A stretch of 64,000 bases of DNA from Heterodontus francisci (lineage: Eukaryota). This document shows positions 2,177 to 51,632 of the stretch, in pieces. Both the position numbers and the translations under genes were made by a program. How positions within the stretch are numbered: position 1 is the stretch's first letter; the number at the start of each line of letters is the position of its first letter. The notes below the pieces were generated by a model. That model searched no databases. It was not told the origin of the DNA and saw only the letters and a program-made list of their open reading frames with translations. The stretch covers positions 24,660,601 to 24,724,600 of the forward strand of contig NC_090413.1 in assembly GCF_036365525.1 (NCBI RefSeq), written 5' to 3'.

Positions 2177-2200
2177 CCAAAGCTCCGAGCCCCACTCCAT
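2177..2200 (-). CDS. TRIP10: First coding exon (MEWGSELW) of an F-BAR protein of the CIP4/TRIP10-FNBP1-FNBP1L family; the rest of the gene lies beyond the left window edge
   Basis: Minus strand reads ATG GAG TGG GGC TCG GAG CTT TGG then gtgagt donor (2176-2171). Matches the 24-nt first exon MDWGTELW (TRIP10) / MSWGTELW (FNBP1, FNBP1L). Acidic residue 2 and linkage to GPR108 favour TRIP10. Confidence 0.8.
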
Positions 2201-2530
2201 AATGCTTTAACTTCTCCTTAATTCTGGCTGGCAAGGAGGAGACAAATAGACCAGGAGACGCTTTCAGCTTCTTTTTTTGGGGGGGGGGGGTTCTTTTTGG
2301 TTTCCTCTCTCGGCTCGTCCGCTCTCTTGTCCTATTTTAAATTTTGATTGTGAAAACTCCTCTTTTATGAATGAGGTTGCTGGGTTTCTCCACAAGCTGT
2401 AAACATTTCCCACTCCCCCCCCCAGCCTCTGGTTAATTTCAAGCTACCACTTTTTCCCTGCGCTGCGCAGACTGCGCGTCACTGACACCAACTCGCCTCC
2501 AAAAAAAGCTCAACTGCGCCTCACTCCAAT
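2201..2530 (-). promoter_or_regulatory. Probable 5' UTR/proximal promoter of the TRIP10-like gene
   Basis: Non-repetitive, locally CpG-enriched stretch (e.g. GCGCTGCGCAGACTGCGCGTC near 2460) directly upstream of the ATG exon; TSS not definable from sequence. Confidence 0.45.
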
Positions 2531-3047
2531 CTTCCAAGGCACAGCAAGCACCCCTAACTCCACTCAGTCTACCTACGATGCAAGGGTTGGCTTCTGGTTG
2601 AGCGTTGCCTGCAATAAGGTGTACAAGGCTGATGCTATTGGAAGGAACACCCTCCTCCCCTCCCCTCCCCTCCCCTCTTCAAGGCGATTCACTTTCAGCA
2701 GTGCAAAAGAGGTTGTGTTACAACATGTACTTGCATTTACATAGCGCCGTTAACAGAGTAAACCGTCCCCTTTTTTTCTTTAATAAAAGCTAAATACTGC
2801 AGATGCTGGAAATCTGAGTTTTTTTTCTTTACTCTGTATCTAACCCTTTTTTTTTGTAGAGGAAGCTTTACTCGATCTCACCCCTTCTTCTTTCTCTGTA
2901 TCTCACCCTTTTTTTTAAGGAAGCCTTTCAACTCCAGGCCCCTTTTTATATATTATTTGTCGAGAGGGCTGTAAACCGTCCCCTTAAGGCGCTTTAAACT
3001 CAATTGGCCACTGAGCCATGTACGGAGATATTAGGACAGGCAGTTTC

Positions 3048-3443
3048 CCACTCCAGGACTTGAGCACAGAAACCTAGGCTGACACTCCCATTGCAACACT
3101 GCGCTGTTGGAGGTGCTGTCTTTCAGATGAGACTGTTAGACCGAAACCCGCATCTGCCCTCTCAGGTGGACATAAAAGATTCTATTGCACAAATTTGAAG
3201 AAGGTCAGGGGCGTTCTCCCCATTGTCCTGGGCCAATATTTATCCCTCAACATCAGTATCAAAATACAAGATTATCTGCTCATTGTCACATTGCTGCTTG
3301 CGGGAGCTTGCTGTGCAAAAATTGGCCATAGCGTTTCCTACATTACAAAAGTGACTGCACTTCAAAAGTACATATTCGGCTGTAAAGAGCTTTGGGACGT
3401 CCTGAGGTTGTGAAAAGTGCTATAGAAATGCAAGTTTATTCTT
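3048..3443 (+). mobile_element. Deu-domain SINE (SacSINE1-like), 5' truncated
   Basis: GAGGTGCTGTCTTTCAGATGAGAC...TGTCCTGGGCCAATATTTATCCCTCAA core and 3' tail GCTATAGAAATGCAAGT; many copies in window. Confidence 0.7.
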
Positions 3444-3554
3444 AAGGGCCGAATGGCCTTCTGTGCCTTCAGACTATAAGAAGTATTTTAAAAGAGGAGA
3501 GAGAGGTAGAGAGTTGGAGAGGTTTCGGGGAGGAATTCCAGAGCGTGGCAACTG

Positions 3555-5262
3555 AAGAACAAAGAACAAAGAAAATTACAGCACAGGAACAGGCCCTTCG
3601 GCCTTCCAAGCCTACGCCGATCCAAATCCTCTATCTAAACCTGTCGCCTATTTTCTAAGGGTCTGTATCTCTTTACTTCCTGCCCATTCATGTATCTGTC
3701 TAGATACATCTTAAAAGATGCTATCGTGCCCGCGTCTACCACCTCCACTGGTAATGCGTTCCATGCGCCCACCACCCTCTGCGTAAAGAACTTTCCACGC
3801 ATATCCCCCCTAAACTTTTCCCCTCTCACTTTGAACTCGTGACCCCTAGTAATTGAATCCCCCACTCTGGGAAAAAGCTTCTTGCTATCCACCCTGTCTA
3901 TACCTCTCATGATTTTGTACACCTCAATCAGGTCCCCCCTCAACCTCCGTCTTTCTAATGAAAATAATCCTAATCTACTCAACCTCTCTTCATAGCTAGC
4001 GCCCTCCATACCAAGCAACATCCTGGTGAACCTCCTCTGCACCCTCTCCAAAGCATCCCCATCCTTTTGGTAATGTGGCGACCAGAACTGCACGCAGTAT
4101 TCCAAATGTGGCCGAACCAAAGTCTTATACAACTGTAACATGACCTGCCAACTCTTGTACTCAATACCCCGTCCGATGAAGGAAAGCATGCCGTATGCCT
4201 TCTTGACCACTCTAAACACCTGCGTTGCCACCTTCAGGGAACAATGGACCTGAACACCCAAATCTCTCTGTACATCAATTTTCCCCAGGACTTTTCCATT
4301 TACTGTATAGTTCACTCTTGAATTGGATCTTCCAAAATGCATCACCTCGCATTTGCCCTGATTGAACTCCATCTGCCATTTCTCTGCCCAACTCTCCAGT
4401 CTATCTATATTCTGCTGTATTCTCTGACAGTCCCCTTCAGTATCTGCTACTCCACCAATCTTAGTGTCGTCTGCAAACTTGCTAATCAGACCACCTATAT
4501 TTTCCTCCAAATCATTTATGTATATCACAAACAACAGTGGTCCCAGCACGGATCCCTGTGGAACACCACTGGTCACACGTCTCCATTTTGAGAAACTCCC
4601 TTCCACTGCTACTCTCTGTCTCCTGTTGCCCAGCCAGTTCTTTATCCATCTAGCTAGTACACCTTGGACCCCATGCGCCTTCACTTTCTCCATCAGCCTA
4701 CCATGGGGAACCTTATCAAACGCCTTACTGAAGTCCATGTATATGACATCTACAGCCCTTCCCTCATCAATCAACTTTGTCACTTCCTCAAAGAATTCTA
4801 TTAAGCTGGTAAGACATGACCTTCCCTGCACAAAACCATGTTGCCTATCACTGATAAGCCCATTTTCTTCCAGATGGGAATAGATCCTATCCCTCAGTAT
4901 CTTCTCCAGTTGCTTCCCTACCACTGACGTCAGGCTCACCGGTCTATAATTACCTGGATTTTCCCTGCTACCCTTCTTAAGCAAGGGGACAACATTAGCA
5001 ATTCTCCAGTCCTCCGGGACCTCACCCGTGTTTAAGGATGTTGCAAAGATATCTGTTAAGGCCCCAACTATTTCCTCTCTCGCTTCCCACAGTAACCTGG
5101 GATAGATCCCATCCGGACCTGGGGACTTGTCCACCTTAATGCCTTTTAGAATACCCAACACTTCCTCCCTCCTTATGCCGACTTGACCTTGAGTAATCAA
5201 ACATCTGTCCCTAACCTCAACATCCGTCATGCCCCTCTCCTCGGTGAATACCGATGCAAAGT
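3555..5262 (-). mobile_element. CR1 (HER1-like) LINE, 5' truncated, uninterrupted 531-codon RT frame (3635-5230)
   Basis: RT motifs PGPDGI, NYRPVSLTS, DFSKAFDKV, GVPQGSVLGP, KFADD, RPHLEY; CR1-type 3' UTR and short tandem-repeat tail (AAGAACA units on + strand at ~3555). Confidence 0.95.
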
Positions 5263-5345
5263 ATAGTCACCAATGGTAATGAAAATTGGGGATGCACAAG
5301 AGGCTAGAGTTGGACAGCACAGAAGTCTTGGAGGGTTATAGGACT

Positions 5346-5693
5346 GAATCATAGAGTCATAGACAGATACAGCACTGAAACAGGCCCTTTGGCCCACCGA
5401 GTCCGTGCTGACCAACAACCACCCATTTTATACTAATCCTACATTAACCCCATATTCCCTACCTCATCCCCACCTCCCCTCAATTTTCCTACCACTTACC
5501 TACAGTAGGGGCAATTTACAATGGCCAATTTACCTATCAACCTGCAAGTCTTTGGCTGTGAGAGGAAACTGGAGCACCTGGCAGAAACCCACACAGTCAC
5601 AGGGAGAACTTGCAAACTCCGCACAGGCAGTACCCGGAACCGAATCCGGGTCACTGGAGCTGTGAGGCTGTGGTGCTAACCACTGCGCCGCCC
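5346..5693 (-). mobile_element. HE1-like tRNA-derived V-SINE
   Basis: Minus strand GGGCGGCGCAGTGGTTAGCAC head, V-domain GGAGTTTGCAAGTTCTCCCTGTG, CR1-like tail GGGCCAAAGGGCCTGTTTCAGTGCTGTATC and (TATGACTC)-type end. Confidence 0.85.
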
Positions 5694-5859
5694 TTAATGA
5701 GTGCAGATAGGGAGGGGCGAGGCCATGGAAGGATTTGAAAACAAGAATGAAGAATTTTAACACCATACATCTAGGGACAGCCATCACCAATGGAGAAAAT
5801 TGCTGATCGCGTTCAACTATGAGTACAGTTTACATCAACTAGTCCTGTAGTCCAATAAG

Positions 5860-6240
5860 CATAGAAAATGAAGGGGTGATCTAACTGGGGTGAGTAAGAT
5901 GATTCAAAGATTTGACTGGGTAGATAGAGAGAAACTATTTTCTCTAGTGAGGGTGTCCAGAACAAGGGGACATTCCCTTAAAATTAGAGCTGGGGTGATG
6001 TCAGGAAGTGCTTCTTCACACAAAGAGTAGTGGAAATCTGGAACTCCCTCCCCCAAAAAGCTGTTGCAACTAGGGGTCGATTGAAAACTTCGAAACTGAG
6101 ATTTTTTGTTCGGTAACGGTATTAAGAGTTACAAAACCAAGGCGGGTAGCTGGAGTTAAGGTTCAGATCAGCTATGTTCTAATTGGATGGCGGAACAAGT
6201 TGGAGGGGCTGAATGGCCTCCTCCTGTTCCTCTGTGTCCA
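5860..6240 (+). mobile_element. Old CR1 3' end remnant
   Basis: Degenerate ...FFTQRVV.IWNSLP coding end and 3' UTR GGGGCTGAATGGCCTCCTCCTGTTCC. Confidence 0.7.
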
Positions 6241-6947
6241 ATGCTTCAATGGAAGCTGGTAGCTTGCCAGCACCCCAATCAAATGTCCACAATGGTCCTT
6301 ATGTTTGGCTTTAGACAGTGTCAGCAGGTTATCTGACAAAGAAGGAATCATAGTTGCGCTCACCCCCTGCCCTCACTTGACAACCACACGCACTCATAGT
6401 TGCAGCACTGAGCAGGCCAGAGCACGTTGGCTGAATGTTGCCCCTCCCCTGGGATGCAGAGACGGAGTACATCAGCCTGGCTGAGACCAGATGACTCAAC
6501 TCAGACTGAGAATCAAACCAGACTCCATCCTGACCAGCAATGACTAAGGATCATTTCTAGCATTGCAGTTACCCACACACGTCCTCATTTACAGAATCTT
6601 ATAGCACAGAAGGAGGCCATTCAGCCCATCATGTCTGTGCCAGCTCTTTGAAAGAGCTATCTAATTAGTCCCACTCCCCTGTCCTTTTCCCAATAGCCCT
6701 TCACATTTCTCCTTTTTATTCAATCCCCTCTTGAAAGTTACTATTGAATCTGCTTCCAGTACCTTTTCAGGCAGTGCATTCCAGATCACAACAACTCGCT
6801 GGCTAACAAAAATTCTCATTTCCTCCTGGATTTGTTTGCCAATTATCTTAAATCTGTGTCCTCTAGTTACCGACCCTCCTGCCGGTGGAAACAGGTTCTC
6901 TTGATTTCTTCTCAATTTATTGATGCTTTCTTTTTTTTTTAAAAGAA

Positions 6948-7440
6948 AAAACTTGCATTCATAGAGTTTTCTTAACCTCAGGCCATCCCAAAGTAATTCA
7001 CAACCAATGAAGTACTTTTGAAGTGTAGTCACTGTTGTAATGTAAGGAAACCCAACTACCAACTTGTGCACAGCAAGCTCCCACAAACTGCAATGAGATA
7101 AAAGACCAAATAATGTTTTACTAATGTTGATTGAGTGATAAATATTAGCCAGGCCATCTGGAATAACACCCGTGTTCTTCTTTTCATAGTGCTGTGCGAT
7201 CTTTTATATCCATCTGAGAGGACAGGCAGGGCCTCATTTAACATCTTGTCTATTTGTATTATTATTATCCTATTTCTTGTGTTCTTATTATCTGGTGGGA
7301 AGCAGCTCAAACAGTGCAGCACCCACTCAGTACTGCACCAGAATGTCAACCTACACAATGCTCTCAGGTTTCTGATGTATGGGTTGAACCTACAGCCTTC
7401 TAACTCAGAGGTGAGTGAGAGTGTCACCAACTGAGCCAAA
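6948..7440 (-). mobile_element. Deu-domain SINE (SacSINE1-like), older copy
   Basis: Reverse complement of the 3048-3443 family including tRNA-like head near 7440. Confidence 0.65.
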
Positions 7441-8497
7441 CCTGTTGCTAATAATATTCTCTAATACTTGCAGGTCAGGAAGCATCTATGGAGAGAGGAA
7501 GGTTGGGTTAACGCTTCAGATCGATGACTTTTCCTCAGAATCCTGCGTTGTTGGCTTTAAATTATGCTTTGTGGGTTATATCAGAGGAAACAGCTATCAT
7601 TATCAGATGTAACCAGTATGGCAGTTCTGCTGGTTTGATCTATTTGATGGTGTTTCCATTTTGTAGTAGGGATGAGGAGTGTTGAGTTTGTCTATAGAAC
7701 CATCCCTCCTTTGAGGGTGAGAAAATATCAGTCATACACGGTGTGATAGAATTCCCACAATGAAATTTCTTTTAAACCTTCAGGATGGGGGTAGGGAGGG
7801 TATACATAGATCAACCAGAGCACAACTGAGCAGCCCAAGTACAAGCAACCAGAACAGATAACCTTACACCAATGCAGCCTTTAGTCCACAATGAATTTGT
7901 TTAAATTATGAGTCCAGACATTTTAAGCATTTTTGTATCGCCCTTTTACTTGCTTTGAGAATGTCGCATGTGTATCCCTCCCTGCCCAGATTGGTCATCA
8001 GCTGCCAGTCTCCTTATTCTTTGCCACTGGAATGTGGGTGCTAACTCTCTGTACATCTTCAAGACAGAGCTGGAGCAGTTTCTGATTGGTACAGAGATCG
8101 TGTCATATAGAAGAGTCAGTAGAAATTACATTTGGCACATGCGATCTTCTGGACTGATTTTGATCAGAGGGGGGCAGAGTAGACTTTTCCTGGAATATTT
8201 CTTTCCCCTATTGGCCCTGGGTTTTCCCCTGTTTTGTTTTGTCTGCCCCAGGAGATTACATGGCTGTGGGTAGGGGAAGGTATTAAGTGTCTAGTCACAA
8301 TGCTCCGGCCATCATAAGTATGTGCTGGGCTTGCTGGTCCTTTCCTGCCTGTTAATTTTGCATGTTCTTGCTCAGTTCTGCTGTATAATATGGAAACCAA
8401 ACTGCAGAAGTTGTAGAAATCTGAGATGAGTTTCCCACCTCCAGCAGACACGGTTTCTCCCTAGCTACTCTGTCAAAACTCTTCATGATTTTATGTA

Positions 8498-8765
8498 GGG
8501 CAGCACAGTGGCGCAGTGGTTAGCACCGCAGACTCACAGCTCCAGGAACCCGGGTTTGATTCTGGGTACTGCCTGTGCGGAGTTTGCAAGTTCTCCCTGT
8601 GACCGTGTGGGTTTTCGCCAGGTGCAATTGGCCATTGTAAATTGCCCCTAGTGTAAGTAGGTGGTAGGGAATATGGGATTACTGTAGGATTAGTATATAT
8701 GGGTGGTTGTTGGTCGGCACAGACTCAGTGGGCAGAAGGGCCTGTTTCAGTGCTAAATAAATAAA
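8498..8765 (+). mobile_element. HE1-like V-SINE with internal deletions
   Basis: GGGCAGCACAGTGGCGCAGTGGTTAGCAC head, B-box-like GGGTTTGATTC, V-domain and GAAGGGCCTGTTTCAGTGCT tail. Confidence 0.8.
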
Positions 8766-11523
8766 TCACATTTTTTTCACCCAAAGGGTGGTAGGGGGTC
8801 TGGAACTCACAGCCTGAAAGGGTAGTCAAGGCAGAAACCCTTAACTCATTTAAAAGTGGTCTGAATATGCACCTGATGTCCCGTAACCTCCAGGGATACG
8901 GACCAAGTGCTGAAAAATGGGATTAGGTTGGGTGGTTCATTTTTCAACAGGTGCAGACACAATGGGCAGAGTAACCTCCATCGGTGTGGTAAATTTTCCT
9001 ACATTTTCTAAATATTCAAAGTATCTGAAGAGGAGGAATGTGCAGGGATACGGGGAGAGAGCGGGGTAGTAGCAGTACGTGAATTGTTCCTTAGCAGGGT
9101 TAGCACGCACACAATGGGTCAAATGGTCTTCTTCATTGGTGTAACGATTCTATGATTCTCAGCCAGGCTGAGTGTGGGCTCGACACAACATCCCAGTAGT
9201 GTCACAAGTAAAGTTCTGGGGTCGTTACACCTGTTCAGTTGTAATACAGATAATCTACATACTTTCCTTAGTGTTAAATCAAGAGGGGTGGGAGGAGGCT
9301 TGTTTGGAGCCAAAACGATGCAGTTGGATTGAATGGTCTGTTTCTGTGCTAACCTGATGATCATATAACATTACCACAGAGAACAACAGAAAAGCTGTTG
9401 TGGAGTGCGTAGAGATTAGAAGATCCAACATCCACAACTTACAGCCTCTGTTTTCTCAACATCTTCTGAAAGGATTCACAGACAGAAACATCACATTACC
9501 CGCTCTCTAACCTTACCAAATAAACCCTCAGGGAGAATCACTTTTCTTTACTGTTCCATATCCTTTTCTTTTTAAATTTTTTTATTCCCTTGTCTTCTAC
9601 CACTAGCTCATAACAAATCCTTTTCCCAAAGTAAAAATATTAAAAAACCCAATGTGTATTTATATAGGTCCTTTAACTCAGTAAAAACGTCCCATGGCTG
9701 AGCGTAATCGGATTTTAAAAATTAACACTGAGCCAAAGAAGGAGATACGATAGTGCACGGTTAAAAGAGGCAGGTTTTAAAGGAGAGTCTTAAAGCAGGA
9801 GAGATTTAGGGAAGGAATTTCAAAGTTTAGGGCCTAGATAGCTAATACAACCACCAATGGTGGATAAAGGAAGTGGGGATGCACATGATGTCTAATTCAG
9901 AGGATTGTAGAACTTCCCTCACAAATGGACCATCTAATCGGAACAGAGGCGATTGGGGAACTGTGCCGCTTACCTAAGGCACTTGCAATCAAACTCAAAG
10001 CACACTGATGAGATGAATGACTCCCCCTCTGCTGCCTGTAAGGACTCCATGTGAAGTGACAAAATTCCCAGTGGACGGGGGCCTACAGTGTGAAACTGCC
10101 CATTATTCAGCTCAAGTTGCCGATCCCACTCGTGGCTGCTGGAGAATTGGAGAATATAATGTGCCAAAGGCATATAATCTACTGGCTGCAGTGTGTCTGA
10201 AACGGGAGAGCTTGGTGCTGACACTCGGTGTGTGAAATGGGAAGTTGCAATATTCCCCATGACTAACGTTCCTTACCTGGCTAGGACAAATATTCAGGTG
10301 ACAAAACAGATTTGCAAAAAAAACAGGTGCAAAAATAATTTACAAGGATGACAACTGTGAGGTTACAACTGTCAGGAAAGGATCAACAGGCTGGGTCTCT
10401 TTTCTCTTGAAAAGAGAAGGCTGAGGGGTAACCGGATTGAGGTTAAAATTATGAAAGATTTTGATAATCGAAAGAGAGGGAATGTTTCTAATTGTGGGGG
10501 AAGAGTGAAACTAGATGCGCTCAACATAAGATAGTCATTAAGATATTAAATAGGGAATTCAGAAGAAATTTCTTTACCCAGAGAGTGGCGAAAATGTGGA
10601 ACTCGCTACCACAAGGAGCAGTCAAGAGGTATGGTGACATAGCAGTTATGTTACTGGATTAGTAATCTTGAGGCTTCGACTAATAATTCAGAGGCATGAG
10701 TTCAAATCCCATCACAGCAGCTGGGGAATTTAAGTTCTAATAAATTAATCTGAAATTTAAAAAAAACTAAATTTTAACTCAGTAATGGTAAGTGCTGCTG
10801 TGCTTGACTCAACTTCCCTCTGAAGTGGCCTAGCAAGTCACAATGACATCAAACCATTACTCAGGGCAACTAGAGCGGAGCATTACATTCTGGACTAGTC
10901 AGCGAAGCTCGCCTCGTGAGAATTAAAAAGAAAATTAGACTTTGTTAATTGTAAGTTAGCCGCCTGTATTTTTCAGTGTGACAGTTGGCTAATTTTCAAA
11001 ATTTGTGGAAGATTTGTTTTGGGTTCCTTCGCAAGTAACACAGCCATTTGGCACAAAACCAGGAAAATCCCAGGCAGGGAATGAGATAGCTGAGCTCAAC
11101 AGGGCGAGCATTACAATTGGGACTAAGGGCCTTGTGCCAAGGACAGGAAGTTCTACCACTTCTGACTTCTACCAAATGGACCTTTTGCTGCACGGTACAT
11201 TTGTGTGAATTTCCAGTAATGCCCCAAAAGTCGAATAGTCTGCCTGGGCTGACACACAGAACATGAAGGGCGCTGCACTATAAACCAGCATGTTTGAGGG
11301 TATATTGTATAATAATTAGTACTTCCACAGATATGTTTGGAATTTACTGGAAGTATTAATTAGTGTTTTTATGCATTGAATATAATCTGGTGAATACATG
11401 CTAGTTGCTATGTACTATATAAAATTGATTGTTTAACAAATTTAAAAAAGCCTGAAGCTAACATTTTCTCAACTGGAATATTCATTGTTGCTTCCGAAAT
11501 TCAGACAGTAAAATGTAAAATCT

Positions 11524-11539
11524 GCGCCACCTAGAGGTC
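11524..11539 (-). promoter_or_regulatory. Candidate CTCF site
   Basis: Minus strand GACCTCTAGGTGGCGC closely fits the CTCF core CCASYAGRKGGCRS; lies in apparently unique intergenic sequence. Confidence 0.4.
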
Positions 11540-11767
11540 TGTAATAGTAGTGCATGTGTTCCCAATAATCTAGTCCATGCAGGAATGCAACATCAGATCT
11601 CTCACACAAATATGTGTTTTTATTTATCAATGTTTCTTTCTTGCTCCAGCTTGGGTACAGTTCAACAGGTATTCATTGTCCTTTGGTACTTGGCTCTAGT
11701 GGCTATTCTTTGTGTGAGCTTCAGCAGTAAGCATCAGCTGGCTATTCGACTACAAGGGCAGCACAAT

Positions 11768-12050
11768 TTCTTTTTATTCATGGGATGTGAATGTCTCTGA
11801 CAAGGCCAGCATTTGTTATCCATCCTTAATTGCCTAGAGAAGGCAGTAGTGAACCTGCTTCTTGAAAGGTGCAATCCATGTGGTGTAAGTACACCCACAG
11901 TACTTTTAGGGAGGGAATTCCAAGTTTTTGACCCAGTGACAGTGTAGGAACGGCGATATATTTCCAATTCAAGATGGTGTGTGGTTTGGAGGGGAACTTG
12001 CAGATGGCAGTGTTTTCATGCGTCTGCTGCCCTTGTCTTTCTAGGTGGTT
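11768..12050 (-). mobile_element. 3' end fragment of the CR1/L2-group LINE family seen at 85-890
   Basis: Reverse complement of 610-890 region. Confidence 0.7.
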
Positions 12051-13232
12051 GAGATGAGACTGTTATTCAGAGCATGACCCCTCAGCTCATTTTCCCCTTG
12101 CTCCTCCTTTCAGCACCCCTAATGCCTGCCCAGAAGGTAAGATAAAGGAAATAAATATTGAAAATTAACAAATCACCTGCAATGTGGTAAATACACTCTG
12201 CTGTGTTAGCAGGTTAATCAGGTTTGGAATGTAAGAAATAACCTGTTGCATCTAGGGGTGGGAACGTTGAGAAAGCACTTGTAACATCTCACTCACTGCC
12301 CCTTGATGAGATGATCATGTAACTCAGTCGAGAGATCCAACCCGAGACCTTCTGGTCAGTGCAGCTGTGTTAAATGTTGTCATTAACAGCTGAGACATCA
12401 AAGGTACCTGCTGTTGCAATGAAACATCCAAGAAAAATTAATTGTTACCCTGTAATTTCTGCAAGTTTAGGTAGAAATGAATATGTTTACAAGGATTAAT
12501 TATACCCTTGTGTAGGTATGTACTGGTTAATCCCCAATGCTTATTGAAATGTGCAATGATTCAGAAGCCAAATTAAAAGGGATATAAAAAATCTGAATGA
12601 AATGACTAGTTTTGACATGATGCTTAAAATAGTTTCCTCTGTTGCATTTCCATAGAACTTAAAACCAGGTTGTACCAGCTACAAAATGAGTCTTGTTCTG
12701 TGGGTTTGAGTTCTGCTTAATGAGCAGCGATGGCCACTTAACATGTTTAATTTTCACCCCGATCATTATCCTTCCTGACCCGGGGAAGCAGGTCGACAGG
12801 TGGAGATTCACCCATGGGTACAAGTCACAGGCACCGATCTCCCTCAGTTACAAATAGCCCTGAAAGCTGTCCGATTAGCACAAAACTCCAACCGATTCAC
12901 AAATATATTTCAGGGAAGGGAAAATGCCACCCCTACGTGGTCTGGGCTTTGTGAGCCTCTCTAGTCTACACACTTTTAATGGGCTCTGAAGTGGCCTAGC
13001 AAGCCACTCAAACCGTAAAAATAGCTGAAGTCGGCCCATCATGGGATGGGCAATATATGTGTGACCTTGCCAGCAATATCCTCATTCAGAGAGCAAATTA
13101 AGAAAAAGGAATGGTAAACAGTACATAACTTTTTGATTGTTACTAAGCAAGGAAAAACAGGATGCAATTAAATACAAATGAAAAGGCGCAAAAACATGTC
13201 ACAGTCACAATCAAAGGAATGTCTACTCCACT

Positions 13233-13238
13233 TTTATT
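13233..13238 (-). promoter_or_regulatory. Candidate DR1 polyadenylation signal AATAAA
   Basis: TTTATT on + strand ~415 nt past the stop codon, followed on the minus strand by GT/T-rich sequence. Confidence 0.45.
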
Positions 13239-13651
13239 ATATCATTACTGTAAACAAGGCAACTTAGTCTTCAATTACTGAACACATTAATAAAATCCAC
13301 AAAGTATATGTTCAACAGGAACTTTTAACTGTTTAACACTTTACTCCAATTAACCAAAATCTTACGTATATAAAAGTCCATTTTTATAGTCTGAAGGACC
13401 ATACACATACACTGTCCAGCTCAGACCGTGTCACGCTTTTAACTCTGTTAAGTCCAAACGTACAATGGTATCTTTTTTTTTTCCATTTTAGGCTAGTCTG
13501 TTTAAAATTTCACAACCGGCACTTCAGCCTTCAGCCGCAGATAGGGGCAGACACCAAGCGATGACCATCTGCGCCGCCATTTTGGAACGCGGTGGGAAGC
13601 GAGTAGAGGGGAGCAATTTAGAAAAGGGAGTGAGACAGCCCAAGCGATACC

Positions 13652-13789
13652 TTAGATGTCCTCCTCCTCTTCCTCGTCCTGTGAGGAGCCTGCCTTGTTA
13701 GCAGTTGCTGCTGCAAGCTGTGCCTGCTGGGCAGCTTGTTGCATCTGTAGCCATTCCTGCTGTGCCAGTTCTGCCTGCTGCTGTCGAGC
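13652..13789 (-). CDS. DR1: DR1 last coding exon (ARQQQAELAQQEWLQMQQAAQQAQLAAATANKAGSSQDEEEEEDI*)
   Basis: Acceptor ttttctctcag, phase 0, TAA at 13654-13652; matches DR1 C-terminus. Confidence 0.93.
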   Translation of the reverse strand, partial: ARQQQAELAQQEWLQMQQAAQQAQLAAATANKAGSSQDEEEEEDI

Positions 13790-14254: not shown

Positions 14255-14660
14255 AGCCATGGCTCAGTGGGTAGCACTCTTGCATCAAAGTCAGAGGTTA
14301 TAGGTTTGAACCCCATTCCAGAGACTTGAGCACGAAATCTAGGCTGACAGTTCAGTGCAGTACAGAGGGAGTGCTGAACTGCTGGAGGTGGCCTTTTCAG
14401 ATAATGCAAAAGATTCTTCAGCATTATTTTGAACAGCAGCGTGGGAGTTCTCTTTGGTGTCTCAGATAATACTTATCCCTCATTCAACATCACAGATTAT
14501 CTAGTCATTATCTCATTGTGGTTTATGGGAGCTTGCGGTGTTCAATTTGGTTGTCGTGTTTCCTACATTACAATACTATACTTCACATGTACTTAATTGG
14601 CTGTAAAGCGCTTTGGGACATCCTGAGGTTGTGAAAGGTGCTACAGAAATATATAGACGT
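14255..14660 (+). mobile_element. Deu-domain SINE (SacSINE1-like)
   Basis: Head GGCTCAGTGGGTAGCACTCT and tail GTGAAAGGTGCTACAGAAAT. Confidence 0.7.
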
Positions 14661-17269
14661 TTTTGGTCTTTAAACAGCACTATAACTAAATCCTATTCTG
14701 TCCCCTTCTCAAATTCATTTTCCATTCTGTTTCCTTGACTAGTGATGAGGGACAAAAACTCAGGGATTTCCCCCTCAGATTATGGGGTCAACTGCAGGAT
14801 TCCTTGCAGCGACCTCTGCTCTCCTCCAATGCTGGTCTCTCGCACATCCTTGATTTTCATCGCTCCGCCACTGGCGACCGGACCTTCAGCTGCTAATGCC
14901 CCAAACTCTGGGACTCCCTCAATAAACCGCTCCACATCTCCCTCCTTTAAGCCTCTCCTTAAAACCTACCTCTTTGAGCTTTTGGTCACCTGCCCGAATA
15001 TCTTATGTGGATCGGTGTCAAATTTGTCTTGGGTAATTTTACTATGTTAAATACATTATATAAATGCAAGCTGTTGTTGAGATCAGACTAGGAATCAAAC
15101 CTACATCTGTATGAATCAGTAGCCCATCAGGCAGTGTAGTTACATACATAGCCATCGGTCAAATCCTTACAACCTATAATTAAGAGGCATTTAACCAGCA
15201 TGGTACCAGTTGACTACCAATACTTCTAGCTAGTTGCTAGGGTATCAGATCAGTTTCATTTAGACGCTTCTCAAAGATCTGGAATGGACTGGAAAACTGA
15301 ATGTCTGTCCCATTGCTGAGTAAAGCTCCACCTTGGTACTGCACCCATGATTCACAATTTAACCTCAACAGCAGTACAATTCCCCGCTGAATAGCTATAC
15401 ATCCTGGAAAAGGAAGCTGGACTTCATACGAGGGGATTTGCATGGAGGGCACTGGTTAGAGATCACTGCTAAAATTTCTTCACATCACAATAGGAAATCA
15501 CTTTCACAATTCCAACGAGCAGAGCAAAGCTCTGTTTCACCAAGGGGGACAGAGTGATTTGTGAGCTCCTTTTTAAGGTTTATAATGGAGTAAATTCACT
15601 GTGGAACTGGGCCACTCAGACCAGCAAGGTCCCATGTTTGATTCCCCAGTCTATGCTAAGTTTGCTGATTCCAGCAGGGTTGGTGGTTGAAGCACTACAA
15701 ATTCTCTCTGCGTGCCTGGGCTGGAAATTAAATTGCAGATTCACTCAGCAGCTACACATCACTATCAATGGCTCATAGTGGTATGTGTGGACAACCAAAT
15801 ATCTTGCTGGTGCTTACTGTCTTCTCAGTACTATCATCACCTCCAGCCTCAGCTTTCCAAAATGCTCTTCTTGCCAGCTTCCACAAATAACATCAAGTCC
15901 AGAATGCCATGACCCATGGTGCACCCACTTGCAATTCTTCCATGGCTTTCTTGACCACAAGACCCTTACGTCTAACTCCCTCCATGGTCTTGCTTGAGTC
16001 TATCTCTGCTATCTTCTCTGGCCACTTGTTTCTGCATAAACCCTCTGTTCCTCCGACACCATATGCTTATGATTCTCTGTTCCTTTAGTTACTACGTATC
16101 CGGTTGATGTGTTTAAGGGGAAGCTAAATAAGTACCTGAGGAAGAAAGGAATATTGCTGATAGGCTGAGATGAAGTAGAGATGGGAGGAGGTTTGTGTGA
16201 AACATAAACACTAGCATAGACCAGTTGGGCTGAATGACCTATTTCTGTGCTGTACATTCTATGTAAACCCCATCTTCTGGAACATCTCCGCCTGCACCTC
16301 CCCCCCAAAAAAATTCCTCTGCCTGGCCGTTTCCCTTTCTGTTTTCAAAAGCCTCCATTTACTTTGATTATGCTGTTGGCTCCCCATAACCCCAAAACAT
16401 TTTCCAGCTCTCTGCTCCTCCTCTTCCTTGCTCACTCAACATCCAGCTTTCTGCAAGGTTTGGACTTTGCTCTGTTCGTAAGGTGCATTATAGACATGGT
16501 TGGTGTTGGCATCTCAGCTGACAGGTAAAGAAACTGCCATTCGGGTGAGGCACTAAGACAGAAGTCAACACGAGCAGGAAAGGGGAATGTTTGGAAAGGG
16601 AGAGTGGGGCTGTGCCCACAGTTCCTCATACAGTAAGTCCTCATCACTGCTGGACCACGCAAGCCAGGAAGAGGTAATGCGAGGTTGGGGAGGAAGAGAG
16701 GGTGAAAAAGCAACAAGCAGAATTTAGACAGACAATCTCCATATAGGTCCAGTCAGCCCTCACATTTACCTCCTGGCAACCATTTACCACAGACAGGAGC
16801 CTAAAAGCCAGTCATTTTATCATAGCCTTAAGTGGGAAATGATGCATGGCACATCGATCTAAACTGGAGAAGGATATGAGTGCACTAAATTTATTTTTAA
16901 AAATGGCAAAATAATTTAGAACAGTGTCTGACCCAGTTTCCAGCACCATGCACCACAGATAACAGTTCTGTTATGGCAGATGCACAGTTGCCTTACTGTA
17001 TAGTTATGTGGTCATCTGAATAACATGGAAGAAAGCAAGTTTGTGGTGTTGATAACGGCTTGTGGACTCCAGAGAGTCTGGCTGCTAAGCAGAAAATAGA
17101 GTTAAAGGGAAGCTGTATTCAGAGTAATGGCCACAAATGGAATACAGGATGTCATTGTTTGGGTGCTTTCCAGAGTTTGTTACAGCGTTAAATGTTTTAA
17201 AACTTTGTGTTTCAGGTACTGAAAAGAAATATTTGCTGATTTGTTAGACTGTTGACCTGACATCTAGTC

Positions 17270-17830
17270 CTGGATGAGCAGAAATTTCCTGCAACTAAAT
17301 ATTTTGAAGACCAAAGTCATTGTCTTCCACCCCCGTCACAAACTCTGTCCCGAGCACTGACTCCATCCCTCTTCCTTGTCACTGTCTGGAGCTGAACCAC
17401 ATTGTTCGCAAGCTTGCTGTCCTATTTGACCCCAAACTGAGCTTCTGACCGCATATCCGTTCTATCAAAATCGCTTACTTCCACCTCTGTAATATTGACC
17501 AACCCCACCCCTGCCTCAGCTCATCCATGTCTTTGTCATCGCTACATTTGATGAATCCAAAGCAAGCCTGGCCGGCGTCCCATCTTCCATCCTCCACAAA
17601 CTTGAACTCATCCAAAATCCTGCTGTTCATATCTGAACTCGCACCAAGTCCGTTCACCCATCACCTCTTTTCTCACTGATCTACATCAGCTCCTGGTCTG
17701 GGAACACTGATTTAAAAGTTTACATCCTGGTTTTCAACCTCTCTTCCTCTCTCGTCTCCTTTAAGATGCTCTTTGGCCAAGCTTTTGGTCACCTCTCCTC
17801 CTTATGTGGCTCGCTGTCAAATTTTATTTG
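17270..17830 (+). mobile_element. L2-like LINE 3' remnant
   Basis: Degenerate WM..NFLQLN...KT...AYFHL.NI and LELIQN L2 RT C-terminal motifs. Confidence 0.6.
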
Positions 17831-17834
17831 AAAA

Positions 17835-18620
17835 CATACGAACATACATATGAATTAGGAGAAGTAGGCCATTCACCATTCAATAAGATCATGGCTGATG
17901 TGTTTCGAATTCCATACTCCGATCTACCCCTGATATCCCTTGATTCCCTTGTTGAACAAAAATCTATCTCCCTCCGCCTTAAAAATATTCAATGACCCCG
18001 CCTCCACCACCTTCTGAGGCAGAGTGTTCCAAAGTCACACAACCCTCAGAGAAAAAATTTCTCCTCATTGGTCTTAAAAGGGCGTCTCCTAATTTTAAAA
18101 CAGTTCCCACTAGTTATGGACTCACCCACGTGGAAACATCCTTTCCACATCCACCTTGTCAAGACCATTCTGGATCTTAGATACCTCAATCAAGTCTCCC
18201 CTCACTTTTTTTAAACTCCAGCGAAAACAAACCCAGTCTATCCAACCTTTCCTCATAAAACAACCTGCTCATTCCAGGTATCAATCTAGTAAACCTCCTC
18301 TGACCTGCCTCCAATGCATTTACAGCCTTCCTTAAATAAGGAGACCAAAATTGCACACAGTATTCGAGATGTGGTCTCACCAATTCCTGTATAACTGAAG
18401 CATAACATCCTTACTTTTATTTTCAATTTTTCTCGTGATAAAGGACAGCATTCCATTAGCCTTCTTTATTACCTACTGTACCTGCATACTAACTTTGTGA
18501 CTCTTGCACTAGAACACCTAGATCCCTCTGCACCTCAGAATTCTGCAGTCATTCTCTGTTTAAGTAATACTCTGCTTTTTTATTCTTCCTGCCAAAGTAA
18601 ACAACTTCACATTTTCAGTG
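17835..18620 (-). mobile_element. Old CR1 3' fragment
   Basis: VRPHLEYCVQFWSPY...QRRFTRLIPG in ORF 18186-18383 plus CR1 3' UTR. Confidence 0.85.
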
Positions 18621-19930
18621 AAGTGCTTTGGGATGTTTTATTAAGCTAATGGCATTATATAAATGCACGTTTATTGTTGTATGGCATTCTTTCCAACAAA
18701 TACAAAGACTTTGGAGAGGGTGCAGAGCAGATTGATCAAAATGATATCAGAGATGAAGGACTTCAATTGTATTGAGAGACTGGAGAAGCTAGATTGTTCT
18801 CCACGGAGCTAAGAAGGTTACGGAGTGATTAAATAGTGTTCAAAATTATAAAAGGGTTTTTGTAAAATAAATAGGGAGAAATCATTGCCACTGGGGTTGG
18901 TAACCAGACAACACAGATGGCAAAAGAATCAGAGGGGACATGAAAGATTTTTTTTTAAACATAAGTAGTTATGATCTGGAATGCACAGCCTGAGTGTGCT
19001 GGAAGCAGATTCAATAATTAGATAAATTCACAAAAATTAGTAATTTAGCAGGGCTATAGGAAAAGAGCATGGAAGTGGGACTAATGTTTTTCAACAGCTG
19101 GCAGGCACATTACGATGAATAGCCTCCTTCTATACTGTGTGATTGTATGAAATAGTTCTGCTTCACCAAGTCAACAGATATCCACCAGAAACAACACACT
19201 CACTACTCCCAGAAGTTTAAAAGGAAATGATGGACAGAGTAGGACTGATACACAGTGTCCACTACATCGGACATTTCAAACAAGCACAGTCCCCTGCAAA
19301 AGAAAAACCCATTGGGATGCTTCCAAGAACTGTGTGTGCTCCCGTCTGGTGCAGAAACAGGCTGGTGTTGGGAGCACTGAAGCTCACTTTCTTCCAATTC
19401 AGTTTCTGTTGCAAAAGCTCAAAAATCTCATTAATCAACTTGAGGCCTAAATGCTGCGTTATCATCCAGTCAGCTTTGTTTCCACTGAGAACCAAGGTCA
19501 GGGGTCCATATCAATTGTGCACAATACAACCAAAGCCGACTCAGGCATTAGGCAAGAGAAATAAGGAAATACTGATTAAATGTGAACAAGCTCAGATTTT
19601 AGTCTGATTGTAGGAGGAGAGTAAGGGTGGTACGAACATACGAACTAGGAGCAGGAAAGGCTATTTGGCCCTTCAAGCCTGCTCTGCCATTCTATAAGAT
19701 CATGGCTGATCTGCTTATGGACTTAACTCTACTTTCCTGCCTACCCCTGATACCCTTTGACTCCCTCGTTTGTCAAGAATATGTCTACCTTAAAAACATT
19801 CAATGAGCCTGTCTCCATCGGTCTCTGGGGAAGAGAGTTCCACAGAAGAGCTCCAGTATTGAGGTGCTGGGGAAGAGTTATAGGAGAGGTAAAACGCTAT
19901 ATGTTTCAAATACTAAGCAACTTTCCTTAC

Positions 19931-20094
19931 TTTTGCAAACAACTCTTGCTGCTGGCGTAGCAGTTCCTCTTCCGGTATCCCGAGGTTCTCCAGGCGAGAG
20001 CTGGCCTTCCTCCTTTCGAGGGCAACTGTCTTGCATTCCCGCAGAACCTCCTTTACTTCAGTTATATATGATCCAAAGCCGAGGCTTTCCAAGG
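19931..20094 (-). CDS. DR1: DR1 second coding exon ((A)LESLGFGSYITEVKEVLRECKTVALERRKASSRLENLGIPEEELLRQQQELFAK)
   Basis: Acceptor ctacag, donor gtaagg, 164 nt, phase 1 to 0; near identical to DR1. Confidence 0.95.
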
Positions 20095-22584
20095 CTGTAG
20101 TACAAGGTAACACAGAAAGAAGCTTTTAACATTCCCGTTGTTACTCTCAGCTTTTTGTGGGGAATTAATTTAAACCCAACAAACTGATTTCAAAATCCTT
20201 TCACATCCACATTGAGGATTCGTGTTAAATGCAGAACCAGTTCTGTTGTTTCATTTTAAATTAATCTCATTCATTGCTGCATAATATTTCGTCTCTCCTG
20301 AATACAGACTTCAGTTATGGAGGTTCCACAGGTTTCAACTATCCTTCAGTACCTCGCCCAACTGGCCATTCTGGGTGTGTGATCTTAGACAGTATCAGCA
20401 TACCATTCTGAGGACAGTACAGCCAGGCTAGATCCCTATCCTCACAGGAGGAGTCACCAACTAGCAGTCTGGAGTGGGAACACTGGCTGATCGTTTTATC
20501 TCCTTAGCCTAAAGACACAAACTAATTTTAGTATCTTACCCACACAAAAAAATTGTGAGGGGATTGGTCGTACAGGTGGAGCTACGAACCAGTTAAAAGG
20601 CGGGTTCGATCCCATGATCTTCATGCTTCCTTCCTCAGCCATGCAGCCTTTGGGCAGCGCTAAGCGGAGGCCACTTTCTGACCCAGAAAAGCAGAGGGGG
20701 AAAACCTGGGCCAAATTGGAAGTTTGGCAGCTAGTCCCGACACCTACTCTTGACTTGATAGATGGAAAAAAGAAAACTTACTCAAAAGACCCCTCACAAA
20801 CATCAGATTTAAAAAATTCAAAAATGAACACTCATCTTAACCCTTGTTGTGTGTCAAATATTAACGCTTTTCTGAGCATCAGATATTAAATCTATTTAGG
20901 GCTCACATTCTGTAATATGACTGATTCAATCTCAGATAGCCAAACCATGTGGACACCAATTTAATAGATTTGTTCTGGACGCATATCCAGGGTGAAGGTA
21001 ATCCCCCTACAACTCAGCGCAACTTTGTACCTTCCTGCTCTGAATAGATCAGCTACTCACTGAATAAACTATTGAGCCATCAGGCAAAATATAATCCGAT
21101 AGGTTTTCCTCAGTTGCCAATATTCTATGATGGGGACACCATGAGACATGAGAACTCTGAAGAGGTTTGCTTTTCAATCCAATTAATTTACCACACTACT
21201 GCACTAACAAGCCATGTCACAGAATGAGTACTTCCCCATTTTAAACCACAAGACAGGCAAACATCAAAGTCAAGCTCCATCTTGTGCACCTACTGGACAT
21301 CCACCAAAGACTGATGCTGACACAGACTTGGCACGAGGTTGTTGATCAATTTGTTTTGATAATGCCACAGGATCCAAGGACATCCAATGTGAACAAAGAA
21401 CTCACCTGTCCTGGCTCTTTGAGAGAGTTGTTCTTAGTCCTACACTCCCGGTTTTTAGCCCATCACTCTAAGTTCCTCATCCTCAAGTACCTGTCCAACT
21501 CCCTTTTAAAATTATTGATGGAAACAGCTTCCAGCACCTTTTCAAGTCGAGCGTTCCAGATCCCAAAAACTCTCAGTGAAACAATTTCTCTTCATCTCCC
21601 CTCTAGATGTGTTGCTAATGAGTTTCTCACACACTCTCAGCAGGAATCATCGCTCAGCTATCAACAACTTTCGTCATATAATGTTAAGGTTCTGACAACA
21701 CTTAACAAAAGGGAGGGGTGGTAGAGTGCTGGAGGTAGGTGGGAGTGAGAAACTTATTGTTTAGGCCTGGGAATAGCTCATCAGTACACAGCATGTGTAC
21801 AATCTGTGAGCTCACAAAGAGATTAAACAAAAAAAAAAAAAGAGGCTGCAGAATTTGACCCAAATATAAAGAGTTATTAGAATTCAGGATCGTTCTCTGG
21901 TCACAGTAAGTCACTCAAGCTTTCAGACAGGGTGACAAAAGAAAAGCCCACAATAACTCAGTCAGGATTGATTTTAGTCGTCCTCAGCACCAGTGGCTTG
22001 GCAGCATTGCAGGCCGCTGCTCACAGGATGTGCCATCTAAAACTCTGCAGGTTACAATCACAAGTGTCAGTACAATTCCAAAGATGAATTTCACACTGTT
22101 TCCTGATCAAGTGCAGCAATAACAACCTTTTCACTGAGTGCAACAGCTCTTTGCCTCTTGTAAGGAACTAGCACATTGCAGAGCTCATGATTTACTGTAA
22201 AATATAGTCATCATTTGTAGACTAGAATTACAGCAATGCTCAGAGGTGAAGAGAATTCCATTATTGTCTTTTTCTGAATCAGCAGAAGCTTTGTGGGACT
22301 ACCTGGAAGTGGGGGCAGTAAATGGTGCCAACCTTCTTCATGTATATGTCAGCTTTCCTGTGCAGTGTGGCACTGATCACAGCATTTTGATTCTCAGTCT
22401 CTGCTGTTAGCTGATCTGAGCCAAGGCAGTAGTAAGCGCAATATAACTAAAGCCAGTGCCCTTCAGGTACATCCTCGCTTCCAACTGGAGAGAGCATTGT
22501 TTGTGGAAGTTGGGTAGGGCATCATCAACTTTTCATACAATAACCTCCTGTACCTTACTACCTAACAACACACACATTAAAAAA

Positions 22585-23005
22585 AGACTTGTATTTATAT
22601 AGAGTATTTCATGATGTCTCAAAGCTAATGAGGCACTTTTGGAATGTAGTCATCGCAATATAGGAAACACTAAACAAGCTTGTACACAGCAAGCTCCCGC
22701 AAACAGCAACGGAATAAAATGACCAGATCATCTATCATTCACCAGGTGCTGGTTGAGGGATAAATATTGGCCAAGGCACCAAGGAGAATGCTTCTACGAA
22801 TCGTGACTGTGGGATCTTTTATGTCCACCTATGAGGGCAGACGAGGCCTCAGCTTAACGTCTCATCGGAAAGACGGCGCCCCCAAGAGTGCAGTACTCCC
22901 TCAGTACTGCACTGGTGAGTCAGCCGACATGAAGTCTCTGAAGTCGGACTTGAGCAAACAACCTTCTCACTCAGAGGCAAGAGTGCTACCTGCTGAGCTG
23001 CAGCT
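22585..23005 (-). mobile_element. Deu-domain SINE (SacSINE1-like) in DR1 intron
   Basis: Reverse complement of family consensus seen at 3048 and 14255. Confidence 0.7.
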
Positions 23006-23127
23006 GAAGAATGGTCATGCAGGTGAGGTATCATCCTCAAACTTTAAGAGGCACATGAAGGCAAGGGGAAAACTTAATAAAATGTTACTGAACTTCCACA
23101 GTGGTTTCCTGACTTTAAATCACATAC

Positions 23128-23350
23128 CTTGCATGATATGCTCTGGTGAGATGGTTTTCTTATCAGACTTATTGCAGATTTCATTAGCTTCGGAGGATAC
23201 TAAATGAATAAATTCAGTGCAGCAGCTCACCACCATTTCTCTGGCATCATTCGCTACCCTGACATTTGGTAGAATCTGTTTGATAATCTTGTTGATGGCA
23301 GCTCTTGGAATAGTTAAGTCATCATCATTATTACCTGAAGCTGAGGCCAT
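23128..23350 (-). CDS. DR1: DR1 first coding exon (histone fold, MASASGNNDDDLTIPRAAINK...ISPEHIMQ)
   Basis: ATG in good context (ACTATGG), 223 nt, donor gtatgt at 23127; H2B-like NC2-beta fold sequence. Confidence 0.95.
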
Positions 23351-23789
23351 AGTTCTTTATTTCACATAAACTGTTGTTGGAAGTTTTTTTAAAAAAAAGG
23401 CAATTTCTCCAAACGAGGATGGTATGTAACAAATCCACGTAAAATTGATCTAATGACACTGAACAGTGTTTAATCCAGTAGGATGTCAAAGCCAAAATAT
23501 GGTGAACATTTGGTTTAAAGATTAAGGAAGGAATTAAATATGATGTTGCCATCCTGGAGAAAAAGGCAAAAACATCAGATATTAAAACATAAAATTTCAG
23601 CAGTAAAAATCAAATGCACATTCATTAACTTTCACAAAGAAACAGGGCATTAGTAAGAAAAATTGGCTACATTCTGACTGCAGCAAGAGGGCAAAAAGAC
23701 CTAGTAAACCTCAATGGACTAAGGGGGTAGATCCACTGGGGGATGCAGGTTAACGATGGCCCCACGTTTAAAGACTGGTCTGATTTAGC

Positions 23790-24155
23790 TCATACTCATC
23801 CTCGTTTTCAAATCCATCTATGGCCTCACCCCCTCCCTATCTCTGTAACCTCCTCCAGCCTTACAACCCTCAGCGATCTCTGCACTCCTCCAACTTTGGC
23901 TTCTTGAGCATCCCCGATTTTAATTGCTCCATCATTGGCGGATGTGCCTTCAGATGCCAAGGCTCTGAGCTTTGGCGTTCTCTCCTTAAACCTCTCCCCT
24001 CCTTTAAAACATTCCTTAAAACCTACCTCTCTGACCAAGTTTATTACCACCTGCCACAATATCCACTTATGCGGCTCGGTTGTCAAATATTATTTGATAA
24101 TGCCTTGGGATGCTTTATTACATTAAAGGCACCATAAAAATACAATCTTTGTTGT
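23790..24155 (+). mobile_element. L2-like LINE 3' remnant between the DR1 ATG exon and promoter
   Basis: LILVFKS...PPYLCNLLQPYNP.RSL...SFKTFLKTYL motif typical of L2 3' coding end. Confidence 0.65.
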
Positions 24156-24242
24156 TGATCTAAATTGGGGGTGTGAAAACAACTTGAGGAGGTGGATTGT
24201 GAAGGGAGGGGAGGAAACAAATACCCTGCAGCAGTCACTTAC

Positions 24243-24440
24243 ACAAGGGTCCACCACCCAGGACTAGGGTCAGCACCTTAAATAGACAGAGTGGTGGGGG
24301 GAGAGGGCGCTGGAGATTCAGTAACAACCCCCAAAGCTCCTCCAAAACCCAATCCTACTGAAAAGGACGAGCCCACCGCCACCCTCTCGCAGCTTTTACC
24401 ATCTTTTTGTCACTCCAGAACCTGCTCCATTACCACCGGA
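24243..24440 (-). other. DR1: Putative non-coding first exon of DR1
   Basis: GTAAGT donor on minus strand at 24242-24237, just downstream of ETS motifs; pairs with pyrimidine-rich acceptor before 23553. 5' end is a guess. Confidence 0.5.
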
Positions 24441-25157
24441 AGTCGCCGCCAGCACCACTTCCGTTTCCAGGGGTAACGGATTTTTTTAAACTCTATCTTT
24501 CCCCGCTTTAATATTCCTCACTTTTCCTTTCTTCCTTATCCCTTTAATAATCTTCCGGATTTTTTTATAAATGTGCAAATTTAAAAAAAGAAAAAAATCT
24601 GTTTTCTCGTACTGCATTCTGGGAGTTGTAGTTTCATTGCTCGCAGACGCCCAGTCACTCTTTTTTAAATTCTGAAATTATTATTTTATAAATGTTATCT
24701 AGTCAAATTGAAACCGGTTTAAAAATCTTAATGCAGTAATTTAAAATAAAAAAAATTCGCGGGATAAAAAAGTGCTCGTTGTTGTTGGCGCGCAACAACT
24801 TCTGGGAATTGTAGTTTCTTCCAATTTATGTTTTTGCAATCTTGTAAATTCCATTATAAGATTTAATTTGTTTGTTTTAATTAATAAATAAGAAAATTAA
24901 AGCTTTTCTTCATTTGTTTAGTGTCCTTTAAAACAACCAATTTTCTCCTTGGTGGTGACTGGGCTACAAGATTCCGCCCTTTTAAGGCGGGGCTAACACT
25001 CAGACTCTCTCTCATAATTGGTGGACTGGTGTACGTCGTGTACAAAGTGTGAGGCCACTATTGGTCAGCCGGCACGTCGATCGGCTGGAAGCCGCGCCGC
25101 TGATTCGTGCGCTGAGCTGCCAGTCGCAGGCGCCCTGCCGCTGCTTCCGGTTGTGTG
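24430..25157. promoter_or_regulatory. Bidirectional promoter shared by DR1 (-) and GPR108 (+)
   Basis: ETS motifs ACCGGAAGT (24435) and CTTCCGG (~25144), two ZNF143/SBS motifs (24613-24633, 24800-24816), E2F-like TTCGCGGGA (~24756) and TTGGCGCG (~24785), GC box (~24986), inverted CCAAT boxes (~25017, ~25060). Confidence 0.75.
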
Positions 25158-25247
25158 ATGATGGCAGGGAGAGGTGCTGAGAGTTTGCTTCTGCTATTTC
25201 TGTTCCTTATTGAGGCCTCAGCGCGGATCCACCGCCTCACACTTAAA
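25158..25247 (+). CDS. GPR108: GPR108 exon 1 (signal peptide, MMAGRGAESLLLLFLFLIEASARIHRLTLK)
   Basis: Hydrophobic leader followed by RIHRL; donor gtaagt at 25248. Start could be ATG 25158 or 25161. Confidence 0.9.
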
Positions 25248-26087: not shown

Positions 26088-26229
26088 TCTTATTGAATGG
26101 TGAGCAGGCTCAAGGGGTTAAAAGGTCTCCCCCTGTTCCTGTGTTCTAGCTGAGCAAATAATGCTGCATCACTTGCATGTCATTTGGTTCATTCTGACTC
26201 TTGGGGAAAACATTGTGAACCACCACGGC

Positions 26230-26816: not shown

Positions 26817-26828
26817 GGCAGTCTTAGT

Positions 26829-51443: not shown

Positions 51444-51632
<189 letters not shown>

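Follow-up and report, generated by a model that had tools for sequence, protein, structure and literature searches.

DR1 (NC2beta) is an almost invariant subunit of the NC2 and ATAC complexes, and vertebrates are usually taken to carry a single copy of it. In a 64,000-nucleotide stretch of the horn shark (Heterodontus francisci) genome (G000:C43:24660601-24724600, contig NC_090413.1; hereafter the window, with C43, C8, C32 and similar handles denoting contigs of this genome), we found a second DR1 gene, DR1b, between TRIP10 and a GPR108-type gene. Its closest described relative is human DR1 (Q01658; 1JFI chain B; PF00808), with which it shares three coding exons, a histone fold, helix 4, a TBP-anchor helix, a QA-rich region and an acidic tail. 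It differs from human DR1 in lying at a second locus beside TRIP10 and GPR108, in an extra N-terminal residue, in a shorter C-terminal linker, and in the substitutions K100E, Q92R, M21I, T25I, L38M, E62D, V71I, I72M and S85T. Within NC2beta, helix H5 anchors TBP and helix H4 touches downstream DNA (PMC4565979), residues 66-80 form an export signal (PMC3442415), and YEATS2 is the partner in ATAC (bioRxiv 2023.08.03.551787).

Retention of ohnologues in cartilaginous fish is an already well-known class of event, and PMC10115646, with 68 differentially retained ohnologues, counts 17 kept in chondrichthyans and coelacanth, with wnt6b and cspg5 among the retained genes. DR1b resembles these in its retention pattern, its beta-side small chromosome and the faster evolution of the beta copy, and is unlike them in that it is not a signalling gene but encodes a general transcription cofactor; DR1 may itself be among the 17. 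The remaining known relatives are the models that RefSeq names 'protein Dr1-like' in sharks, rays and Latimeria (P0181, P0007, P0010, P0173), of which P0181, the RefSeq-type horn shark record, is identical to the joined DR1b protein. This label is automatic and is also attached to lineage-specific copies in mammals and salmonids that are unrelated and have canonical-type residues. Full-text literature searches returned no paper on a DR1 paralogue, and 12 of the 24 supplementary files of PMC8455134, those searched, held no match. DR1b, an ohnologue of a core transcription cofactor, is real and intact and has apparently not been described before. We hold with considerable confidence that it is an intact, spliced copy, likely from the beta side of the second vertebrate genome doubling (2R), and that its product would serve as a (nearly) interchangeable NC2beta subunit, as predicted from its sequence.

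The DR1b gene and its collinear blocks

The three coding exons of DR1b are bounded by AG and GT and join into 525 nt, encoding 174 amino acids and a stop with no internal stop codons (Table 1). Contigs from all four runs examined (of 22 listed) skip both introns, which have CT..AC ends; the runs represent at most three samples, three studies and two organisms, their RNA status is guessed in the record, and contigs give neither expression level nor tissue. Neither exon 1 nor exon 2 matches more than two places, so an intronless copy does not explain these spliced contigs. Searches with each exon found exactly two DR1 loci in the genome, DR1b on C43 and a canonical-type gene, DR1a, on C8 (24007350-24060799, + strand). 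DR1a encodes 177 amino acids in exons of 220, 164 and 150 nt, adjoins FNBP1L, and has introns at the same places and in the same phases as DR1b. A genome search with PF00808 was dominated by histone genes, and its top rows alone were used. The abundant histone-fold matches (3891 candidates, 150 scored) on C45, C35, C28 and many unplaced contigs are likely large dispersed histone gene arrays.

Three F-BAR genes are present in the genome, on C43, C8 and C32, and so are three NSP-family (BCAR3/SH2D3-type) genes, each pair arranged tail to tail. A PDB search placed one NSP exon piece with SH2D3C and BCAR3, and Pfam assigned no family to four such pieces. The C43 block reads RDH8-like, GPR108, DR1b, TRIP10, NSP; the C8 block RDH8-like, DR1a, FNBP1L, NSP; and the C32 block GPR107, FNBP1, NSP. 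Both C43 and C8 have RDH8-like genes upstream, oriented alike. C43 and C8 thereby hold four gene pairs that are collinear and equally oriented on different contigs, the arrangement of a paralogon, with C32 as its third block. The names SH2D3A, BCAR3, GPR108 and GPR107 are given by position rather than by trees. We found no GPR remnant within 120 kb upstream of DR1a on C8, and tblastn with four DR1 proteins found no DR1 remnant in 200 kb around GPR107-FNBP1 on C32, where the weak matches (E 0.08-0.25) are one repeated element outside the 25-kb GPR107-FNBP1 intergenic gap. The human counterparts of the three blocks are at 19p13 (GPR108-TRIP10), 1p22 (DR1-FNBP1L) and 9q34 (GPR107-FNBP1).

As the window contains eight TRIP10 codons only, the identity of the F-BAR neighbour was settled from flanking DNA. 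Its exon 4 is closest to CIP4 (2efk, 49.5 bits) rather than FBP17 (2efl, 40.8 bits), all 17 named or co-clustering matches are of CIP4/TRIP10 type (16 so named, one unnamed), and in an F-BAR tree the C43 gene joins CIP4/TRIP10 (Ambystoma and chondrichthyan CIP4) with support 100/99. Most of the original prediction, made from the letters of the window, thus stands: exons, frame and spliced contigs agree with the gene order, strands and intact intron-containing DR1 that it described, a second DR1 does lie next to FNBP1L, the F-BAR neighbour is TRIP10 and not FNBP1L, and DR1 is missing from the GPR107-FNBP1 block.

Related arrangements occur in other genomes. A bichir model (P0212) fuses an RDH8-like gene to DR1, which suggests that the RDH8-like/DR1 adjacency of C8 holds also in a bony fish. 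In amphioxus, DR1 and the FNBP1 homologue are on contigs of equal size, which suggests old linkage, not adjacency. In database models of crocodile, a seabird, marmoset and hedgehog (P0089, P0092-P0096, P0098, P0099), exons 1-2 of DR1 are followed in frame by exon 2 of FNBP1L, and the phases of DR1b exon 2 and TRIP10 exon 2 match likewise. Beyond GPR108, C43 carries two tandem RDH8-like genes (24738254 and 24762235, - strand) and C8 only one.

The DR1b protein and residue 100

In the core of DR1b (residues 8-150), 131 of 143 residues are as in the mammalian protein; the 12 substitutions against human are mostly conservative, and residues 101-156 are identical, leaving the TBP-anchor and QA-rich region unchanged. 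The protein scores 83.4 bits against PF00808 and 316 bits against 1jfi_B, and its predicted model (predicted local distance difference test score 82) matches 1JFI chain B with a fold E of 1.1e-17, with predicted helices at 82-107 (helix 4) and 116-159 (TBP-anchor helix 5). The differences from human that had been singled out earlier (KIIKQIL, EMVVSCC and HIMQ) are real, and the divergence they were taken to signal is modest. Two of the residues are not specific to the paralogue: the Ser of EMVVSCC also occurs in canonical shark DR1 and in lamprey, and where KIIKQIL has Gln, the rays, chimaera, Heptranchias and Pristiophorus have Glu. K100E, the best candidate for a functional change, was absent from that list. 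The suggestion of a variant NC2 complex is weakly supported, since the protein is so similar and its relative rate (below) is not significantly raised.

Residue 100 was counted in a 52-row alignment, which we preferred to a noisy pattern count on 253 proteins. It is Lys in all 25 canonical vertebrate rows (11/11 chondrichthyan, 11/11 bony, 3/3 cyclostome) and in six of seven invertebrate rows, the seventh having Arg. Among b-type rows it is Glu in 18 of 19 chondrichthyans and Gln in coelacanth, the b copy of Narcine having Lys. The KRRK motif at 100-103, which is said to act as an import signal, is accordingly ERRK in those 18 rows and QRRK in coelacanth. K100E is the one non-conservative, near-fixed change of DR1b and lies at the basic end of helix 4; M21I, T25I and L38M are also fixed or nearly fixed in b, and V71I and I72M fall in the export signal. 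In the DR1a of this genome (G000:C8:24044313-24044474, L004; P0196), residues 104-106, directly after KRRK, read GNF where the remaining 10 canonical chondrichthyan rows read ASS, perhaps through a change in this species or an error in the assembly.

K100E might alter DNA grip or nuclear entry. Given the same origin, DR1b could be a functionally distinct NC2beta in which the lost K100, together with Q92R, would weaken or redirect the helix-4 DNA contact or the import signal, resulting in a variant NC2 or a bias toward ATAC. The near-invariance of Lys in canonical rows, its replacement in nearly all b rows, the other fixed b residues and the position of residue 100 within predicted helix 82-107, corresponding to the H4 that contacts downstream DNA (PMC4565979), all favor such a change. 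Against it, the Lys of Narcine b and a Glu at residue 100 in one insect DR1 (P0152) indicate that Glu is neither required in b nor unique to it, Q92R gives back a positive charge two turns away, and the TBP-anchor and QA region is untouched. We therefore regard a distinct function as possible but doubtful, and consider near-equivalent function with split or shared expression most likely.

Age and retention of the duplicate

Because the DR1 protein is too short and too conserved to decide by tree, the dating of DR1b leans on synteny. DR1a and DR1b are saturated at synonymous sites (proportion of synonymous differences, pS, 0.92; of nonsynonymous differences, pN, 0.06; 173 codons). In the DR1 tree, cyclostomes fall outside all jawed-vertebrate copies (98/88) and a coelacanth copy joins the b clade (97/90). 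The F-BAR tree (23 rows, from 38 initially, long-branch and fragment rows having been dropped) unites the C8 gene with FNBP1L (100/100) and the C32 gene with FNBP1 (95/93), and makes FNBP1L and TRIP10 sisters (94/90); the duplications behind these flanking pairs fall between the divergence of the invertebrate chordates and that of sharks from bony vertebrates, an interval that the DR1 tree also fits although its tests (below) reject no alternative. In the skate supplement, the baits Dr1-1 and Fnbp1l are on Leri_10C and Gpr108 and Trip10 on Leri_39C, and in skate Table 3 LER10 is 1alpha and LER39 1beta of group L, with LER31, in the adjoining row M, as 2alpha (PMC10115646). Since the skate orthologues of the neighbours are on the LER10/LER39 pair, DR1a and DR1b are most likely 2R alpha/beta homeologues and DR1b the beta-side ohnologue, a placement made through the neighbours (Leri_10C, Leri_39C) and not through skate DR1b itself. 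Beta segments show more gene loss and quicker evolution (PMC10115646). In relative-rate counts against lamprey, b is faster in nine of nine species pairs, significantly so in five (chimaera and four batoids) and not in four sharks; the window copy has 9 unique changes against 4 (p 0.27) and the coelacanth copy 17 against 0.

The 52-row alignment contains b-type DR1 in 19 chondrichthyan sequences (10 sharks, eight batoids and one chimaera) and canonical DR1 in 11. In seven of seven other species where both records give a contig size, Dr1-like and CIP4 are on equally sized contigs. The coelacanth Dr1-like protein has b states at 25, 62, 72 and 105, together with an N-terminal insertion and a C-terminal deletion; it has canonical states at 21, 38, 71 and 85 and non-canonical residues at 92 and 100. 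On this sequence pattern, DR1b was probably retained in coelacanth too. No b-type protein of ray-finned fish or tetrapods is among the matches listed (best 120 of 230 and best 120 of 614; clusters at 90% identity, 15 of the 405 members of the largest cluster, and no lungfish among the sequences), and DR1b is likely absent from both groups. The gene had been proposed as an ohnologue lost in mammals: the first part holds, most likely with a 2R origin, and the loss reaches well beyond mammals, given the absence of a ray-finned or tetrapod copy among these matches.

Several observations weigh against a 2R copy of nearly unchanged function that survives in coelacanth. The best DR1 tree sets b beside shark a (87/78), so that canonical DR1 does not form a single clade, and approximately unbiased (AU) tests reject none of the alternatives, be it a clade of a with bony DR1 (p 0.109), a chondrichthyan-only duplication (p 0.127) or the coelacanth copy with bony DR1 (p 0.203). 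For the F-BAR genes, FNBP1+TRIP10 (p 0.097) and FNBP1+FNBP1L (p 0.167) likewise survive AU tests, and because these groupings are left standing, the choice of 2R over the first doubling (1R) rests largely on the skate table. For coelacanth the evidence is the Dr1-like protein itself, and one of the 11 canonical chondrichthyan sequences shares the extra N-terminal residue. The b copies of rays, chimaera and coelacanth are significantly faster than canonical DR1, which relaxed constraint would fit equally well. Finally, DRAP1 is represented by one gene, on C44 (one match each by pattern and by protein search); therefore both DR1 proteins likely use one partner, which argues against simple stoichiometric co-retention.

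An origin of the pair in 1R would agree with the surviving F-BAR groupings and with cyclostomes that may have kept one copy only. It is very improbable in view of the cyclostome DR1 outside both copies, the sister relation of FNBP1L and TRIP10 in the best tree and the pairing of LER10 with LER39 as 1alpha/1beta (PMC10115646). Also very improbable is a segmental duplication of DR1 alone in the chondrichthyan stem, with the coelacanth Dr1-like gene an independent duplicate drawn to b by long-branch attraction. The position of b in the DR1 tree, the non-rejecting AU test and the long coelacanth branch would suit it. It is opposed by the flanking pairs (FNBP1L/TRIP10 and two NSP genes), pan-gnathostome paralogues whose order and orientation match, by the b states, C-terminal deletion and non-canonical residues 92 and 100 of coelacanth, and by the unlikelihood of a chance DR1 insertion at exactly the paralogous position. 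There is next to no chance that DR1b is an assembly artefact, allele, retrocopy or decaying pseudogene: nothing was found in favor of this, and DR1a-like introns, saturated synonymous sites, spliced contigs and intact orthologues in the 19 chondrichthyan sequences rule it out.

Features of the window and implications

Table 1. Features of the window, in window coordinates
Feature	Position	Strand	Details
TRIP10 (CIP4) coding exon 1	2177..2200	-	8 codons, GT donor; sole F-BAR part inside the window
DR1b 3' untranslated region (UTR), at least to 13111	13111..13651	-	Contig of run X19 spans 13111-13788 and extends further into exon 2 and exon 1
DR1b last coding exon	13652..13789	-	QA-rich region, acidic tail, stop
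DR1b middle coding exon	19931..20094	-	164 nt; carries helix 4 (Q92R, K100E) and the beginning of the TBP-anchor helix
DR1b first coding exon	23128..23350	-	223 nt; histone fold, PF00808
DR1b 5' UTR portion of first coding exon	23351..23554	-	Contigs extend to 23499-23554
DR1b/GPR108 head-to-head promoter region, probably common to both	24400..25157	.	Likely, from CpG content
GPR108-type gene	25158..63222	+	Exon 1 at 25158-25247, at least 12 further exons; Pfam GOST_TM downstream

The remainder of TRIP10 extends about 94 kb past the left end of the window (G000:C43:24605921 to 24568724). Near 23554, upstream of the DR1b coding sequence, there is an AG acceptor, which suggests that a non-coding exon precedes the first coding exon. 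For the windows that begin at 24500 and 24750 the observed/expected CpG ratio is 0.97-1.05, and for surrounding windows 0.2-0.4, pointing to a likely head-to-head promoter common to DR1b and GPR108. The ATG exon of DR1b is not in a CpG island, with a ratio of 0.31 versus 0.90 for that of DR1a. An upstream ATG on the - strand (23331-23552) opens a frame of ~73 codons, which runs across the DR1b start in a different reading frame; it is altered by a 2-nt deletion at 23366 in organism B and is probably not conserved. Long frames with reverse-transcriptase domains (PF00078) at 3635-5266 (-) and 26885-28153 (-) are likely fragments of long interspersed nuclear elements in introns of the TRIP10 upstream region and of GPR108.

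With a single-exon query, the genome gave two GPR107/108 genes, on C43 and C32. A protein atlas comparison did not separate GPR107 from GPR108, and we name the C43 gene GPR108 by its family, its position beside TRIP10 and the skate table, not by a tree. A genome search with Pfam PF06814 missed the GPR107/108 exons and matched three separate GOST-family genes, likely of TMEM87 type (G000:C3:171487381, C9:111621090 and C40:20894943). Humans have two TMEM87 genes, and one of the three may on that count be a further retained paralogue.

The history that we favor for DR1b, a 2R copy of near-equivalent function, would run as follows. A first doubling would have separated the FNBP1 block from an FNBP1L/TRIP10 block, and a second C8 from C43; reciprocal losses would then have removed the GPR gene of C8 and the DR1 of C32. 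After that, cartilaginous fishes and probably coelacanth would have kept DR1b, and the other bony vertebrates would have lost it. Its predicted histone fold would pair with the single DRAP1 (in NC2) or YEATS2 (in ATAC), and its unchanged anchor helix would clamp TBP on promoter DNA. Retention may have come about through shared dosage or split expression, aided by the promoter region common with GPR108, and K100E may tune DNA grip or import.

An old second DR1 with a seemingly single DRAP1 offers a clean case for asking why the duplicate of a dosage-sensitive cofactor survives, and the five-gene block reconstructs the ancestral order of the human 1p22/19p13/9q34 paralogon. K100E is a natural variant at a nearly invariant position of a DNA-contacting helix. 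Tentatively, cartilaginous fishes and coelacanth may have two NC2beta subunits on one DRAP1, the variant with a charge-reversed helix-4 patch forming a second NC2 (or ATAC) species with a different promoter grip or regulated nuclear entry. If true, this would amount to a natural experiment on a complex that vertebrates otherwise have fixed in single copy.

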